Below are positions 1 to 17,573 of a stretch of DNA of 20,000 bases, piece after piece. Under the pieces are notes generated by a model. That model did no database searches. It worked only from the letters and a program-made list of their open reading frames with translations, and had not been told where the DNA came from. The stretch's first letter is position 1, and each line of letters opens with the position of its first letter. The position numbers and the translations under genes were made by a program. The DNA comes from an uncultured virus (IMG/VR IMGVR_UViG_2671181191_000004) (lineage: Duplodnaviria > Heunggongvirae > Uroviricota > Caudoviricetes). The stretch lies in IMG/VR virus record IMGVR_UViG_2671181191_000004; one strand, given 5' to 3'.

Positions 1-90
1 CCGACGCATAGCATCGGCTTCCACTTCACGTCTACGATAAGTGGAACTTCCATTTTTGTATGTACGTATACCGCCTGAAGTCTTTGCCAT
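1..90 (-). CDS. Partial ORF running off the window edge; fourth MAKT[SA]GG[VLI]R-leader protein
   Basis: Manual translation from ATG at 90 gives MAKTSGGIRTYKNGSSTYRRREVEADAMRR... It starts 2 nt after the TAG of the 93..353 ORF. Confidence 0.85.
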   Translation of the reverse strand, partial: MAKTSGGIRTYKNGSSTYRRREVEADAMRR

Positions 91-92
91 AT

Positions 93-353
93 CTATCTTC
101 TACTTAATCCCATATAAGTTGAACGTTTAGCTTTTGCATCACTGGGAATCATACCATTATACGCTCTGCTGAAATTAGTAAAATATCTCTCATAAATAGA
201 TTTTACCCTATCTCTGATTACCCGTTGCTTTTCCGAACTTCCATACTGTCTATAAGCTTGCGTTTGAATACGATACCTTTGCGCAGTCAATTCCTTCATA
301 GACTTTGTACGTTCCTTCCCATTACTCCTTACTCCTCCTGATGTTTTAGCCAT
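93..353 (-). CDS. Small basic protein with MAKTSGGVR leader (86 aa)
   Basis: ORF track. It has 21 K/R against 6 D/E by manual count and is tightly packed in the operon. Confidence 0.85.
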   Translation of the reverse strand: MAKTSGGVRSNGKERTKSMKELTAQRYRIQTQAYRQYGSSEKQRVIRDRVKSIYERYFTNFSRAYNGMIPSDAKAKRSTYMGLSRR

Positions 354-364
354 ATCTTTAATTC

Positions 365-700
365 TTAATCACCAACAAACTTACTTCCGAAACGTCCTCT
401 TTTATTAGGTGTGTAAAATGCAGATTCTGGTATAGATAAATCATCATAAGAACTCCTTTGAGCAGGTTTCAAATCTTTATACTCCTTTCTCATTTTATCA
501 AGATAAGACTTATTGGCAGCAGCTTTATAATCAGTAGTTACCGCCCGACCGCCATAGTTTCTCCAAGCCTGTTTTATACTTTCTGAAAAAGATATTTTTC
601 CGCCATAAAGTCTATAGAGTTTATGTGCCATCGCCATTACTTTCGAACTGTTCATTCGAGACGAAGTTCCATTCCTTACTCCTCCTGCCGTTTTAGCCAT
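365..700 (-). CDS. Small basic protein with MAKTAGGVR leader (111 aa)
   Basis: ORF track. It starts 2 nt after the upstream stop and contains a VMxxA...FSExxKxAW helical motif. Confidence 0.85.
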   Translation of the reverse strand: MAKTAGGVRNGTSSRMNSSKVMAMAHKLYRLYGGKISFSESIKQAWRNYGGRAVTTDYKAAANKSYLDKMRKEYKDLKPAQRSSYDDLSIPESAFYTPNKRGRFGSKFVGD

Positions 701-702
701 AG

Positions 703-1038
703 TTATCTCCTTCCGGTGTATCCACCTCTTCCTGCTCGGAATTCACGTCTGTCTCTAACTTCAAACTCACGAGCTAGGTCACGATTATAAATATCATATT
801 GTGTACCTCTGCGTGTATCTTTGTCAATAGCTGCTGCTGTAGCAAAGCCTGATTTAGCAGGACTATCAAAGCGGGATGCAACCCTATCAATCCACTTTTC
901 GGCCTGTGATTGTGTACGAAAATTCTTTTGTAACCACCTTGTTTCTCCATTACGATTCTGTACCGCAACTGAAGCCTGAAAATTTCCTCCACTTCGTGAA
1001 GAACTACCACTTCTTAGCCCACCTGCCGTTTTAGCCAT
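703..1038 (-). CDS. Small Arg-rich protein with MAKTAGGLR leader (111 aa)
   Basis: The likely start is ATG at 1038, which overlaps the upstream stop (ATGGCTAA) and is preceded by AAGGAGGTGA. The ORF-track start at 1092 lies inside the upstream gene. Confidence 0.85.
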   Translation of the reverse strand: MAKTAGGLRSGSSSRSGGNFQASVAVQNRNGETRWLQKNFRTQSQAEKWIDRVASRFDSPAKSGFATAAAIDKDTRRGTQYDIYNRDLAREFEVRDRREFRAGRGGYTGRR

Positions 1039-2137
1039 TTTCACCTCCTTTCTTGATTTGCTTAACTCTATTAGCCATGAACTGCTCAACATAAAGTACG
1101 TTGTTTTGCAAACATAATTCCCTTATTGCTTCACCACCTCCGTAAACGATCATATTGGGGTTGTCTTTACCTGATATTTCGCGGGCTATTTGTATTTCCA
1201 ACTTAAGGTATTCCTGTCTATCTGTATAACCACGCGTAGCAAAAGCATCGTAGCCATCTGGAATACCCAAACAGTTATATTTGTAGAATTTTTGCGCCAC
1301 ATTGAGATCTACATAAATCTTAGCACCACACTCCTGCCAAAAACGGGCAATCCAACGCTTCATATAAATTTGTTGTAAGCCGTAGGCTATAGGTGTGGTA
1401 TCGAATAAAGATAGATTGGGTTCTACCAGTTCGGTGCATCCGCTATCCAATACGGATATTGGATTATTCCAAATATTGGTAAAACGATAATCTTCCACAT
1501 AAAAGTGATAGGTGGATATCCCCTTCTTAGCCCTTGTATCCGAACCCCATCCAGCAAAGGGTAGTAATAATCCACTTGTAGGTTGTCCGTCAAACAATAG
1601 ACTAGGGACATCAAACTCGTTATTACTGTCATAAATACGGTCACCAAGCATCATAGCAAAAAAATCAGCTTTCCTAACTTCTTCCTCGCCTGTTTCCTCT
1701 TGTTGTTTGGGCTTTTTTAGCTGCTTATCCTCTTTCGGTTCTTGCCACACGTCAAAGCCCCATTCTTCCAACTCTAAGCTATCCCATTCATTAGCCAAAG
1801 CATCCCAATCGTTTTCACCAAAAGGATTGTTATCTTGAATAAGCATCTGACGGAGCTTTTCTACCGGCATATTTTCGGGTAATATACAACAAGGCACTTC
1901 TGTCCATCCGAGATACTTGTATGCCTGCAAACGCATATTTCCACCAATGACAACATAACTACCATTATAAGGATAAACAAGAATATCTCTCGCCTCTGTC
2001 ATTTCTGGAAGTGACTGTATAGAGCGACACAACTTACGAAATTTCTCATCTTTGATAAGACGGGGATTCCTCGGCAGCCCTTCTAGCTGTCCTTCATTCG
2101 GGATTACTTTCGATATATCTATCTTGGCTCTTTGCAT
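1031..2137 (-). CDS. ParB/Srx-like N-terminal domain fused to a DUF4417-like domain
   Basis: The N-terminus NPRLI...LCRSI...VVIGGNMRLQA...VPC...IQDN fits ParB-N. After an acidic linker, HFYVEDYRF..IWNNP...PNLSLF...KRWIARFWQECG matches the DUF4417 pattern as I recall it. Confidence 0.8.
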   Translation of the reverse strand: MQRAKIDISKVIPNEGQLEGLPRNPRLIKDEKFRKLCRSIQSLPEMTEARDILVYPYNGSYVVIGGNMRLQAYKYLGWTEVPCCILPENMPVEKLRQMLIQDNNPFGENDWDALANEWDSLELEEWGFDVWQEPKEDKQLKKPKQQEETGEEEVRKADFFAMMLGDRIYDSNNEFDVPSLLFDGQPTSGLLLPFAGWGSDTRAKKGISTYHFYVEDYRFTNIWNNPISVLDSGCTELVEPNLSLFDTTPIAYGLQQIYMKRWIARFWQECGAKIYVDLNVAQKFYKYNCLGIPDGYDAFATRGYTDRQEYLKLEIQIAREISGKDNPNMIVYGGGEAIRELCLQNNVLYVEQFMANRVKQIKKGGENG

Positions 2138-2235: not shown

Positions 2236-2442
2236 TCACAAAGTCTTTTTCAGCCATTTATCCCGTCTTTCTCTGCACACCTCTAAGGTAGGCGCACAAC
2301 AAGAAAACAACTCACCGTCTTCTGTACGATAGTCGTATTGGTACATTCTCACTCTCTTTCTGCCTAACTTCGTTGTGTAGGTAGTGTAATTCTCTTTACC
2401 GGGCTGGCATACGCTGCAACCGTTTTCATTTATTGAGTTCAT
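2236..2442 (-). CDS. DUF3873-like protein
   Basis: NGCSVC..G.ENY...YQYDYR..DGELFSC.APTL..CR..RDKWL is the Bacteroides DUF3873 pattern as I recall it. Likely start is ATG at 2442. Confidence 0.7.
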   Translation of the reverse strand: MNSINENGCSVCQPGKENYTTYTTKLGRKRVRMYQYDYRTEDGELFSCCAPTLEVCRERRDKWLKKTL

Positions 2443-2453
2443 AATCACTATAT

Positions 2454-4119: not shown

Positions 4120-4455
4120 ATGAAAAAAGAAAGAGAGATATTATATTATGAGAGTTACTTTATAGACTTCTTCATGTCATTAGAGGATGGAGCAAAGAAA
4201 AAAGTATCTTATGTGCTTGATATGCTCAAGACACAAGAGCGACAGAATAAAAACTTCGTGAAATTCATACGCGAGGGTGTATATGAATTAAGAGCAAGCC
4301 ATAACGGAAATATTTATCGTGCTTTCTTTATCTTTGATGATGGGAACATCGTAATGCTGTTTAACGGTTTTCAAAAGAAGACCCAGAAGACACCTGAAAG
4401 TGAAATTAATAAGGCTTTAAAACTTAAAAATGAATATTATGCAAGCAAATCCTAA
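4120..4455 (+). CDS. higB: RelE/HigB-family toxin (Gp49-like)
   Basis: GVYELRA...IYRAFFIF...IVMLFNGFQKKTQKTP.SEI.KA motif; it lies upstream of an HTH antitoxin. Confidence 0.88.
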   Translation: MKKEREILYYESYFIDFFMSLEDGAKKKVSYVLDMLKTQERQNKNFVKFIREGVYELRASHNGNIYRAFFIFDDGNIVMLFNGFQKKTQKTPESEINKALKLKNEYYASKS

Positions 4456-4741
4456 AATTGGAAGTATGGATGCCGTATTAGACAAATTATACGGCAAAGT
4501 TGGCTCACCTGAAAGGGAGGAGTTTCGCAAAGAGGCATACGCTTATTGTGTGGGGCAAATGATTAGTGACGCACGTAAACAAGAAAAAATGACACAATCT
4601 GAACTTGCGGAAAAGGTCGGTACTAATAAAACTTATATATCAAGGATCGAAAAAGGAGTTATAGAACCAGGAGTTGGTTTATTCTTTCGCATCATTGATG
4701 CACTGGGACTTAAAATAGAAATCGTCAAGCCCATATTATAA
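4439..4741 (+). CDS. higA: HigA-like XRE antitoxin
   Basis: ARKQEKMTQSELAEKVGTNKTYISRIEKG HTH. It overlaps the toxin 3' end; start is ATG at 4439 or 4430. Confidence 0.88.
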   Translation: MQANPKIGSMDAVLDKLYGKVGSPEREEFRKEAYAYCVGQMISDARKQEKMTQSELAEKVGTNKTYISRIEKGVIEPGVGLFFRIIDALGLKIEIVKPIL

Positions 4742-16725: not shown

Positions 16726-16806
16726 AACCGTGTGATTTAATATGTTTATACTATTGCGTTACTCAAACTTTCTTCGTTTCTTTGTATCATTGAATGTTTG
16801 ATGATG

Positions 16807-16894
16807 CAAATATACTACAATATTGCAGTATTACAATAAATACAATGCAATATTGCATGTTTTTAATCTTTATTAATACTAAATTATTGCAGTA
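16807..16894. promoter_or_regulatory. Lysis/lysogeny switch: leftward promoter and three 18-bp operators (consensus TACTGCAATATTGCAGTA)
   Basis: TATATTTG (-) at 16807-16814; operators at 16813-16830, 16843-16860 and 16877-16894. Confidence 0.8.
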
Positions 16895-16895
16895 C

Positions 16896-17573
16896 ATGAC
16901 AACAGAAGAGTTACTCAAGAAAGCAGAAGAAGCTATTAAGTTACTTAAAGAAAGCAAGTTATCTAACTATGTGATATCAAAGCAGACCCATATATCACAA
17001 AGTACATTGGGTAATTACAAAAATGGGAAAACTAAACCAACACCTGCAAATACTGAAATACTACTGCAATTTTTCAGTAGTGAAAATGTATTGGCAATTG
17101 AGAATGAAGCAATACCATTAAACCAAAACTATATTATAAACGTACCATTAGTGAATCAATACGCACAAGCCGGCTATTTATGCGGATTTCAAGATGCGGC
17201 ATACATAGCTACACTACCTACTATACCTTTTATAATAGACCACGAAGCTAAAGGAAACTATGTAGCATTTGAAGTAAGAGGTGACAGTATGAATGATGGA
17301 ACTGAAGAGAGTTACCTTGAAGGAGATAGACTTCTTTGTAGAGAAATAGCTCCATATCTATGGGGAGAGTCTAAATTGCATATCCGGAAATGGGATTTCG
17401 TTATTGTACATGAAGAGGGAATTTTGGTAAAACGAATAATAGATCATAATGTAGAAAATCATACTATTACAATACATTCTTTGAACGATATGTATCCTGA
17501 CAGAGTTATTGATTTGGCAGAAGTTAGACAAATCTTCAATGTGATTGAATTGCAAAGACCAAGAAGGAGGTAG
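16896..17573 (+). CDS. cI: CI/LexA-like repressor (HTH plus S24 peptidase)
   Basis: HTH ISKQTHISQSTLGNYKNGKTKP, cleavage site AQAG, catalytic VRGDSM and VKRI. The likely start is ATG at 16896, since the ORF-track extension spans the operators. Confidence 0.9.
   Translation: MTTEELLKKAEEAIKLLKESKLSNYVISKQTHISQSTLGNYKNGKTKPTPANTEILLQFFSSENVLAIENEAIPLNQNYIINVPLVNQYAQAGYLCGFQDAAYIATLPTIPFIIDHEAKGNYVAFEVRGDSMNDGTEESYLEGDRLLCREIAPYLWGESKLHIRKWDFVIVHEEGILVKRIIDHNVENHTITIHSLNDMYPDRVIDLAEVRQIFNVIELQRPRRR

Follow-up and report, generated by a model that had tools for sequence, protein, structure and literature searches.

A nine-residue N-terminal tag, selected as a peptide, heads unrelated small proteins in the packaging module of Bacteroidales proviruses

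Effectors that are delivered by the virion decide the first minutes of a phage infection. To our knowledge, the routes by which proteins enter a capsid have so far been large anchor domains, as in MuF and polyvalent proteins, and the capsid-targeting sequence (CTS) of phage T4. Here we describe a nine-residue peptide, MAKT[AS]GG[LVI]R, that opens four consecutive small genes in a stretch of viral DNA of 20,000 nucleotides (IMG/VR record IMGVR_UViG_2671181191_000004; the whole stretch is called the window below). In reverse complement, the window corresponds to positions 4-20003 of a 30,833-bp record (G001) that is classed as a provirus; the phage is a temperate Bacteroidales provirus of 30.8 kb, and the window carries the start of its late region. 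The peptide is a leader, or tag, that is under purifying selection and stands in front of a different cargo in each gene. We put the probability at roughly one in two that this tag is a phage-lineage-specific address that loads interchangeable effector cassettes into the virion. The four tagged genes and their conserved neighbor are as follows.

703..1038, minus strand: leader gene 1, cargo family F02, 111 aa; leader codons at 1038-1012, MAKTAGGLR
365..700, minus strand: leader gene 2, cargo family F09, 111 aa; leader codons at 700-674, MAKTAGGVR
93..353, minus strand: leader gene 3, cargo family F11, 86 aa; leader codons at 353-327, MAKTSGGVR
1..90, minus strand: leader gene 4, cargo family F00, first 30 codons in the window; leader codons at 90-64, MAKTSGGIR
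1031..2137, minus strand: ParB_N-like NTPase/nuclease domain fused to DUF4417 (ParB-DUF4417), 368 aa; conserved neighbor upstream of the leader array

The tagged genes lie in tandem with intergenic gaps of 2-11 nt, and the plus strand of positions 1-1038 holds no open reading frame (ORF) above 55 aa. The longest ORF of leader gene 1 opens at an upstream ATG at 1092, inside the 3' end of the ParB-DUF4417 gene; we set the start at 1038 because all relatives start there. Leader gene 4 is 173 aa when complete (L002:1115-1636, parent provirus). The tag of the window is referred to as V-type (V, I, or L at residue 8), and a sister tag, MAKxSGGTR, as T-type.

In T4, the CTS is found on diverse internal proteins and suffices to load foreign proteins into the head, according to the part of the source that was available (PMC3012670). 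As with the CTS of IPI, IPII, IPIII, and Alt, the leader described here is a short N-terminal peptide on otherwise unrelated, fast-diversifying small phage proteins: a conserved peptide of about 10 residues heads at least 16 V-type and 22 T-type clusters of unrelated proteins. An ADP-ribosyltransferase is among the cargos of both, namely T4 Alt (in the accessible text of PMC5512222) and four of the T-type cargos. The likeness is one of design. The carriers differ, being temperate Bacteroidales phages with an SPP1-type portal and Terminase_3, and no prohead protease or scaffolding core was recognized in this provirus. MuF polymorphic toxins, including Bxa of a Bacteroides stercoris prophage, come close in other respects (PMC5576092 and PMC11699363, both as partial texts). 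The F00 domain is fused behind Phage_Mu_F in other phages, ADP-ribosyltransferase cargos are shared (PMC11699363, same portion), and both kinds of gene are located in the packaging/head module. Yet the MuF domain of about 100-300 residues (PF04233) is absent from the four tagged proteins, which have nine residues and a linker at the N-terminus instead, and a variable C-terminal toxin domain was found for F00 only. In addition, several tagged genes occur per phage, whereas muf is single "with rare exceptions" in the available part of PMC5576092. Polyvalent proteins, as covered by the accessible part of PMC5512222, have in common with the tagged genes the LPD3, ADP-ribosyltransferase, zincin peptidase, and ParB-type domains as well as a proposed delivery with invading DNA, and "solo versions" of their domains are noted there to occur in phages. 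They carry 2-15 domains per polypeptide in that account, whereas the genes described here are separate and small, each with its own copy of the tag. Where polyvalent proteins have at least two effector domains, a single modeled domain stands behind the tag in F00 and in F02.

Two other kinds of short peptide invite comparison. Encapsulin cargo-loading peptides are short, Gly/Ser-containing, and disordered, have flexible linkers, and bring unrelated cargo into an HK97-fold shell; they are usually C-terminal and bind the shell protein. The tag, in contrast, is N-terminal, and the major capsid protein was marked down as its receptor because a homolog is detectable in only 8 of 26 records of phages bearing the identical tag. 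Double-glycine bacteriocin leaders are 15-30 residues long, end in GG, and lie beside a C39 peptidase/ABC exporter. That identity was rejected, since the glycine pair falls at residues 6-7 of 9 and neither a peptidase nor an ABC exporter was among the Pfam-scanned neighbors (window and L002). By this comparison of features, the tag resembles the T4 CTS in design and lacks the defining features of the MuF and polyvalent families. Its motif strings were not found in the literature searched, although the supplements of the MuF and Bxa papers could list such proteins; MuF is the only capsid-targeting element mentioned in the part of the Bxa study that was available (PMC11699363).

The original prediction held that the four gene starts of the window share a leader that is conserved as protein and not as DNA. 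The strings that it quoted are present on the minus strand at 1038, 700, 353, and 90, each as the ATG start of one of the tandem ORFs. Across the four copies, residues change only between S and A at position 5 and among V, L, and I at position 8. Within codons 2-9, nine of the 24 sites vary, of which six are third, three are first, and none are second codon positions (binomial P = 0.042 for at least six of nine variable sites at third positions), and the proportions of synonymous (pS) and nonsynonymous (pN) differences are 0.61 and 0.12, respectively. The 30 nt before each start differ, as had been said of the upstream spacers, and belong to the 3' ends of the genes before them. In all six frames of the window and L002, which together make up nearly the whole provirus, the motif was encountered four times, only at these N-termini. 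The back-translated DNA pattern matched 1 of 401 Bacteroidota genomes, namely the center genome, which carries such a prophage; a reversed-pattern control gave one match. A chance origin of the shared leader is excluded.

Relatives were collected in four samples. The 17 loci of sample (a), retrieved via peptides within the last cargo, have one to four leader genes per array. Sample (b) was obtained with the back-translated V-type pattern, with N at third positions, and contains at least 118 viral stretches, at least 207 instances, and at least 108 unique starts; about eight instances are in short ORFs without phage context and look like chance matches. Sample (c) was anchored on the ParB-DUF4417 protein, not on the leader, and consists of the best 80 of 414 relatives. 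The 80 loci contain 152 leader gene starts, of which 74 are unique, and 47 different 27-mers. Because leader detection tolerated up to three mismatches to the consensus, this sample is partly conditioned on the leader. A leader gene starts between -10 and +26 from the end of the ParB match in 79 of the 80 loci, and in the remaining one (L216) this gene is present but its leader is frameshifted. Leader genes of at least 60 aa number zero, one, two, three, and four per locus in 2, 27, 42, 7, and 2 loci, respectively, and 12 loci hold a truncated one. Finally, sample (d) used the ParB-DUF4417 anchor with one genome per species and gave 78 loci. Its labels are mostly Bacteroidales (Paraprevotella clara, P. 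xylaniphila, Bacteroides, Alistipes, Segatella, Prevotella, Muribaculaceae, Duncaniella, Barnesiella, Dysgonomonas, and others), with a few bins labeled as other phyla. The motif filter was passed by 39 of the 78 loci, and the rest mostly start with MGRNSGGV.., MGRNSSGTR, MAKSYGGIR, and similar strings, which indicates that the tag drifts with increasing divergence of the phage lineage. The only cultured relatives found were Bacteroides phage Versailles and, for the F00 domain, Elizabethkingia phage TCUEAP3.

In sample (c), codons 2-9 vary mostly at their third positions, where entropy averages 1.53 bits, compared with 0.42 and 0.25 bits at first and second positions, respectively. Serine is written as AGT, AGC, and the four TCN codons, arginine as AGA, AGG, and the four CGN codons, and leucine as CTA and TTA. 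Over the 80 loci the leader has a pS of 0.70 and a pN of 0.14, so that the comparison of substitution rates across homologous arrays that had been proposed with the original prediction returns purifying selection. Nearly free third positions, switches between codon families, and low pN together indicate that selection acts on the peptide and not on DNA or RNA, as had been predicted from the window. Within cargo families, pN is 0.048 and pS 0.32 for the leader vs 0.149 and 0.51 for the rest of the gene; the leader peptide is thus under stronger purifying selection than the cargo. Between cargo families, the leader has a pS of 0.70 and a pN of 0.16; its synonymous sites are near saturation, and paralogous leaders are therefore not homogenized at the DNA level. 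One part of the earlier claim needs to be narrowed. Differences are synonymous or conservative among the four window copies, but the wider sample contains nonconservative variants: G7E, always as GAA, in 19 of 152 starts and three cargo families, K3N in two loci, and T4I, G6V, and R9I in one locus each, alongside K3R and R9K, also in one locus each; the leaders of distant lineages read MGRNSGGV.. and MGRNSSGTR. Of the two observations that had been named beforehand as speaking against the prediction, third positions as conserved as the others were not seen, while nonconservative changes were seen in some starts.

Some DNA-level constraint on the leader is nevertheless real. In 46 of 79 loci, the ParB-DUF4417 reading frame terminates within the first leader; in the window, the overlap spans 1031-1038, where ATGGCTAA is read ..GGC TAA, and codons 2-3 of a first-position leader are therefore fixed at the DNA level. 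Within families, moreover, leader pS is about 60% of cargo pS. One locus (L041, on a contig that also holds L199) lacks the first cassette, and its next leader reads ATGGCAAAG; by a reading of the leader alone, the ParB frame would extend there by seven codons.

The original prediction had also suggested mapping breakpoints to see whether cargo is swapped at the leader. Junctions do cluster there: of 669 ends of high-scoring segment pairs (HSPs; identity of at least 85%), 377 are located between -30 and +60 from a leader ATG, a zone that makes up 11.5% of the sequence. Yet this clustering cannot show recombination in the leader because alignments extend through any conserved leader, and recombination at that site is inseparable from selection for intact cassettes. 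The two readable deletions (L011 and L066) end within cargo and not at leader repeats. They are visible as remnants, one consisting of a leader and the out-of-frame 3' tail of F02 (L011:997-1104, 35 aa) and the other of a leader fused in frame to the last nine F00 residues (L066:2501-2557, 18 aa), placed after TerL. Cassettes of tag and cargo are gained, lost, and pseudogenized between related phages, and the 12 truncated cargos with an intact tag in sample (c) were counted, along with the leaderless small ORFs behind some cargos, as the signature of an arms race.

The tagged proteins are modular. Each consists of the nine-residue tag, a disordered and indel-rich linker, and a folded cargo that is unrelated to the cargo of its neighbors. 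Residues 10-19 are 75% G, S, N, T, R, or K vs 46% in the remainder, and the linker varies in length and sequence even among close orthologs, as in the alignment of F02, where leader and domain are conserved and the linker is rich in indels. In F02, an S/G-rich linker at residues 10-18 is followed by an alpha+beta domain; the AlphaFold2 (AF2) model, with a mean predicted local distance difference test (pLDDT) score of 73.9, has no secondary structure before residue 20 and a pLDDT below 50 at residues 5-16. The V-type tag is carried by at least 89 unique proteins in at least 17 BLASTP clusters, of 72-244 aa. One cluster, from a giant-virus contig, is probably due to chance, and discounting it leaves at least 16 mutually unrelated cargo families. 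With a second pattern, the T-type tag was found at 113 loci with 125 starts and 87 unique proteins, and it heads 22 further clusters among 56 unique complete proteins. Orthologs of F09 in L016 and L022 are 69-70% identical and have an identical leader peptide, and the F11 cargo occurs in L012 as the first gene after ParB, with the leader MAKTAGGIR.

Cargo F00 is, on the strength of its predicted structure, a CdiA-CT-like PD-(D/E)xK-type nuclease or toxin domain. Its AF2 model has a mean pLDDT of 87.8, with residues 1-4 below 50, and the only Foldseek match in the PDB at E <=0.001 was the CdiA-CT toxin of Burkholderia pseudomallei (4g6v_A; E 1.1e-5, probability 1.00, template modeling [TM] scores 0.54/0.69, 135 columns). 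The protein matches phrog_36422 (1.4e-92). The Pfam cut-off for CdiA_C (PF18451) was missed, at 21.3 vs 26.6 bits, by the ortholog in L014, and the window copy gave nothing at E <=0.05. F00 aligns to residues 180-333 of a MuF-containing minor head protein of Elizabethkingia phage TCUEAP3, the gene for which adjoins the portal gene. A profile search of 1.84 billion representatives returned 229 matches to F00. Phage_Mu_F precedes the F00 domain in 15 of the 22 longer matches scanned, and all 20 matches of at least 250 aa are without the tag, whether N-terminal or internal. Among the stand-alone matches of 150-215 aa, 23 of 72 have the strict tag pattern and 39 of 72 the loose one, and many others are visibly degenerate. 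A word-index search for longer F00 fusions gave only two ParB or DUF4417 read-through fusions; the MuF fusions surfaced only in the profile search. A distant stand-alone relative (P0112) had no match in cultured phages.

Other cargos of the relatives also resemble effectors. F13 scores above the Pfam cut-off for LPD3, F03 contains the HExxH motif and matches phrog_16681, and four T-type cargos pass Pfam cut-offs for ADP-ribosyltransferase families. For F02, no PDB sequence was matched at E below 0.3 in a profile search, and the best Foldseek match in the PDB had E 0.058; a wide search with VIA peaked at a generic Z of 5.5, BFVD at E 0.008 to unnamed proteins, and Atlas at 0.80, which is noise level. 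F09 had Atlas matches only to unnamed viral or Bacteroidota clusters. Behind F08 (L145, L146, L147, and L171) and behind the F03-like zincin (L427:5261-5500 and many loci of sample [d]) there are ORFs of 56-80 aa without a leader, those after the HExxH cargo starting with M.KIELT..E..VI.QQLNG. They look like immunity or partner genes; the one in L146 had nothing over the Pfam cut-off, and no immunity-like ORF is evident behind the four tagged genes of the window. A basic C-terminal tail such as KRRRKK was seen in at least half of the members in 10 of 17 cargo families (e.g., L030:2501-2860, L091:2529-2888, and L112:329-562), and that of F02 is GRR or a long RRRKRR extension. Such tails could serve in DNA binding or could arise incidentally from the purine-rich stretch in which the next gene starts.

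In the provirus, ParB-DUF4417 is followed by the four tagged genes and then, beyond the window, by a small-terminase-like gene (TerS), the Terminase_3 large terminase (TerL), and the SPP1-type portal, and in the V-type group tagged genes always lie between ParB-DUF4417 and TerS. T-type genes are found right after the SPP1-type portal, which is the usual place of muf (L226, L272, L255, and L263), before TerS (L254), between TerS and TerL (L276), after TerL (L297), or after DUF4417 (L235, L241, and L285). In both groups they are always within the packaging/head module. Tags are also uniform within a phage. Where a locus has two or more tag genes, V/I/L-type and T-type tags are mixed in 0 of 36, 0 of 37, and 0 of 18 loci in three viral samples, with residue 8 left free, and in the species-genome sample one of eight multi-tag loci is mixed (N with V). 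Cargo families F00 and F01, meanwhile, are found with both tag types. It follows that the tag matches the phage and not the cargo, as would be predicted for an address that is read by a phage-encoded partner.

Further downstream of the portal, the provirus carries a HicA/HicB pair, a scaffold-like coiled-coil protein, and an HK97-type major head protein. The slot behind the portal, where muf is usually found, is occupied by the HicA/HicB pair as called by Pfam (L002:5069-5682), and there is no large ORF between portal and scaffold in this provirus; in a relative, the same slot holds ORFs of 99 and 129 aa that were judged by eye to be HigB/HTH-like (L016:9006-9679). Upstream of the array, the 368-aa protein matches DUF4417 in Pfam (E 4.8e-36) and phrog_940 "nuclease" in PHROGs (1.1e-89). 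Over its N-terminal ~100 residues it resembles ParB proteins of solved structure (E 3e-5); the DUF4417 portion has no relative among solved structures. Just upstream of this gene is a DUF3873 protein of 70 aa (2236-2448, minus strand; E 2.8e-25), a family known from Bacteroides conjugative elements. The remaining window resembles an early and regulatory region, with an S24/LexA-like repressor, helix-turn-helix (HTH) proteins, a Gp49/HTH pair, HNH ORFs, a DUF3799 PD-(D/E)xK protein, and the DUF3873 protein. Two of these features fit a temperate phage, namely the toxin-antitoxin-like pair of Gp49-like (DUF891) and HTH genes (4120-4738, plus strand) and the HTH-Peptidase_S24 repressor, which is LexA/CI-like (16794-17570, plus strand). 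A promoter and terminator scan of the leader array found no excess over shuffles.

We propose that the tag is a short linear address motif, the reader of which would be encoded by the phage itself and would belong to the packaging or head machinery. Varied proteins of effector or toxin type would thereby enter the virion and be delivered with the DNA, the candidates being the CdiA-CT-like nuclease in this provirus and ADP-ribosyltransferases, LPD3, and a zincin peptidase in relatives. Its role would be like that of the CTS of T4 internal proteins and like the one proposed for the MuF domain of MuF polymorphic toxins. This reading, to which we give the even odds stated above, draws on a modular, disordered tag and linker, on the occurrence of one tag on many cargos, on cargo types like those of MuF and polyvalent proteins, and on the position in the packaging module. 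It also draws on the uniformity of tags within lineages, the signature of an arms race, the T4 precedent, and the finding that Phage_Mu_F exceeded the Pfam cut-off in 0 of 26 V-group records, two of which have a weak, divergent MuF after the portal. A bolder version is tentative, and we would sooner bet against it than for it. It states that the tag, as M-[AG]-[KR]-x-[SA]-G-G-x-R followed by a flexible linker, might be sufficient to load any small protein; that its reader would be lineage specific, with DUF4417, usually fused to a ParB-type NTPase, as prime candidate; and that it would replace or supplement the MuF anchor and let effector cassettes swap between phages.

Several observations weigh against the idea of an address for virion loading. 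Three of the four window cargos (F02, F09, and F11) have no recognizable function and belong to no Pfam or PHROG family. At residues 98-100 (region L002:1400-1420), F00 and close relatives of it have E-Q-R, vs E-Q-K or D-I-K in many distant relatives; judged from its sequence, this site looks like the (D/E)xK position of the nuclease fold, and activity may differ. No immunity-like ORF was seen behind F00 in the ParB-anchored loci. Among the phages with identical tags, the capsid homolog is found in the few records noted above, and the portal family, though shared in 23 of 26, is mostly only 24-27% identical, so that a conserved docking site is not evident in either protein. No ORF of the provirus head module matched a prohead protease family, a result that does not mean that there is no protease; T4-like processing can therefore not be assumed. 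Finally, an ORF of 700-1,005 aa that matches MuF weakly (13-20 bits, always below the cut-off) is present in 13 of 34 T-group records and sometimes adjoins a tag gene. These ORFs weaken the notion that the tag replaces MuF, and their presence alongside tags implies that the tag is not merely a MuF substitute. One such ORF, of 700 aa (L263:3523-5622), lies behind a tag gene that itself comes directly after the portal; besides its weak MuF match, the ORF has a Gln_amidase domain (papain-fold glutamine deamidase toxin). It is probably a Bxa-type MuF toxin, which would place tag and MuF-like toxin side by side.

Candidates for the reader of the tag include the SPP1-type portal, the terminase, and DUF4417, a protein that co-occurs with the tag; this last candidate leads to a different account in which encapsidation is not required. 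The tag could be a recognition motif for the upstream ParB-NTPase/DUF4417 protein, with the tagged proteins as substrates or partners that are processed, modified, activated, or tethered to DNA. We regard this as unlikely when taken by itself, and it could be combined with an address for virion loading if DUF4417 were the loading adaptor. Of the 80 viral loci, 79 have a tag-type gene behind ParB-DUF4417, and the stop of one gene usually overlaps the start of the other; most of the 78 species-genome loci also have one, down to 37% ParB identity, and the tag drifts in parallel with ParB. In T-type records, which were retrieved by the tag pattern alone, DUF4417 was over the cut-off in 29 of 34, including all 12 of those that are at least 90% complete, vs 0 of 14 control genomes. 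Bacteroides phage Versailles, which has been cultured, has a nuclease (ParB-DUF4417), a 201-aa HExxH protein that starts with MGRNSSGTR, a 79-aa ORF, a 158-aa ORF that sits, by position only, at the expected place of the small terminase, TerL, and the portal. Mycobacterium phage CloudWang3 (L428, record 418-2952; cluster A) has the same order as the Bacteroidales phages, with a DUF4417-like "nuclease" (gp1), an HExxH "peptidase" (gp2) with a long Gly-rich N-terminal region starting with MGGRGGGGG, an HNH gene, and TerS; 252 Mycobacterium phage records match the DUF4417 half. Yet the mycobacteriophage and Bacteroides peptidases have no significant similarity beyond HExxH (BLASTP E 0.66), many T-group tag genes adjoin the portal or terminase far from DUF4417, and the co-occurrence may reflect only shared ancestry because these phages are related. 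Nor is DUF4417 known to have an activity: the available part of a preprint describes it only as a phage-enriched fusion partner of the ParB-CTPase fold (bioRxiv 10.1101/2025.10.10.680097).

Host machinery could also read such a peptide, given that short, disordered N-terminal peptides are recognized by proteases and some export systems. The tag would then serve as a degron at the N-terminus or as an export signal, so that the cargo is less toxic to the producer or is released from it, which might suit the several cargos that are toxin-like, most of them without an obvious immunity gene. We consider this improbable. The tag is uniform within a phage and differs between lineages on the same host order while cargo is shared, a pattern that a phage-encoded reader fits better; the genes are always in the packaging module; and the tag has no hydrophobic stretch, with no signal-peptide-like feature visible in the sequences. 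That the leader acts as nucleic acid, whether as a recombination site for cassette shuffling or as a translation-initiation or RNA signal, with the peptide incidental, is largely refuted and in our view highly improbable, even though three of the four window leaders differ at just 2-4 of 27 nt. The clustering of homology-block ends, the lower pS of the leader than of the cargo, and the overlap with the ParB stop would all agree with it, but the entropy at third positions, the use of unrelated codon families for Ser, Arg, and Leu, and the gap between pS and pN across cargo families do not. Moreover, the motif GGAGGA, which resembles a ribosome-binding site, is present in two copies while the others have GGTGGG or GGCGGT, and the two readable deletions end inside cargo. 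Tandem small genes often stem from duplication, and the shared N-terminus might in principle be a functionless remnant of the shared ancestry of paralogous genes. This is the least credible of the accounts and is contradicted by the selection statistics, as the nine residues are more conserved than any cargo. In addition, the cargos cannot be aligned with one another (17 V-type and 22 T-type BLASTP clusters), the two that were modeled (F00 and F02) differ in fold, and the tag persists across ParB identities from 100% to about 44%.

Our findings describe a nine-residue tag that is common to dozens of unrelated cargo families in common human-gut prophages. It offers a clear natural case in which codon usage alone reveals selection on a short linear motif. 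In gut Bacteroides, the MuF toxin Bxa affects colonization, according to the available portion of PMC11699363. If the tag is an address for virion loading, it would allow candidates for injected effectors, toxins, and anti-defense proteins to be recognized in metagenomes by a simple sequence rule. It would also give a testable handle on DUF4417, a domain that would thereby gain a function, and the tag might be used to load chosen proteins into phages of gut Bacteroides.

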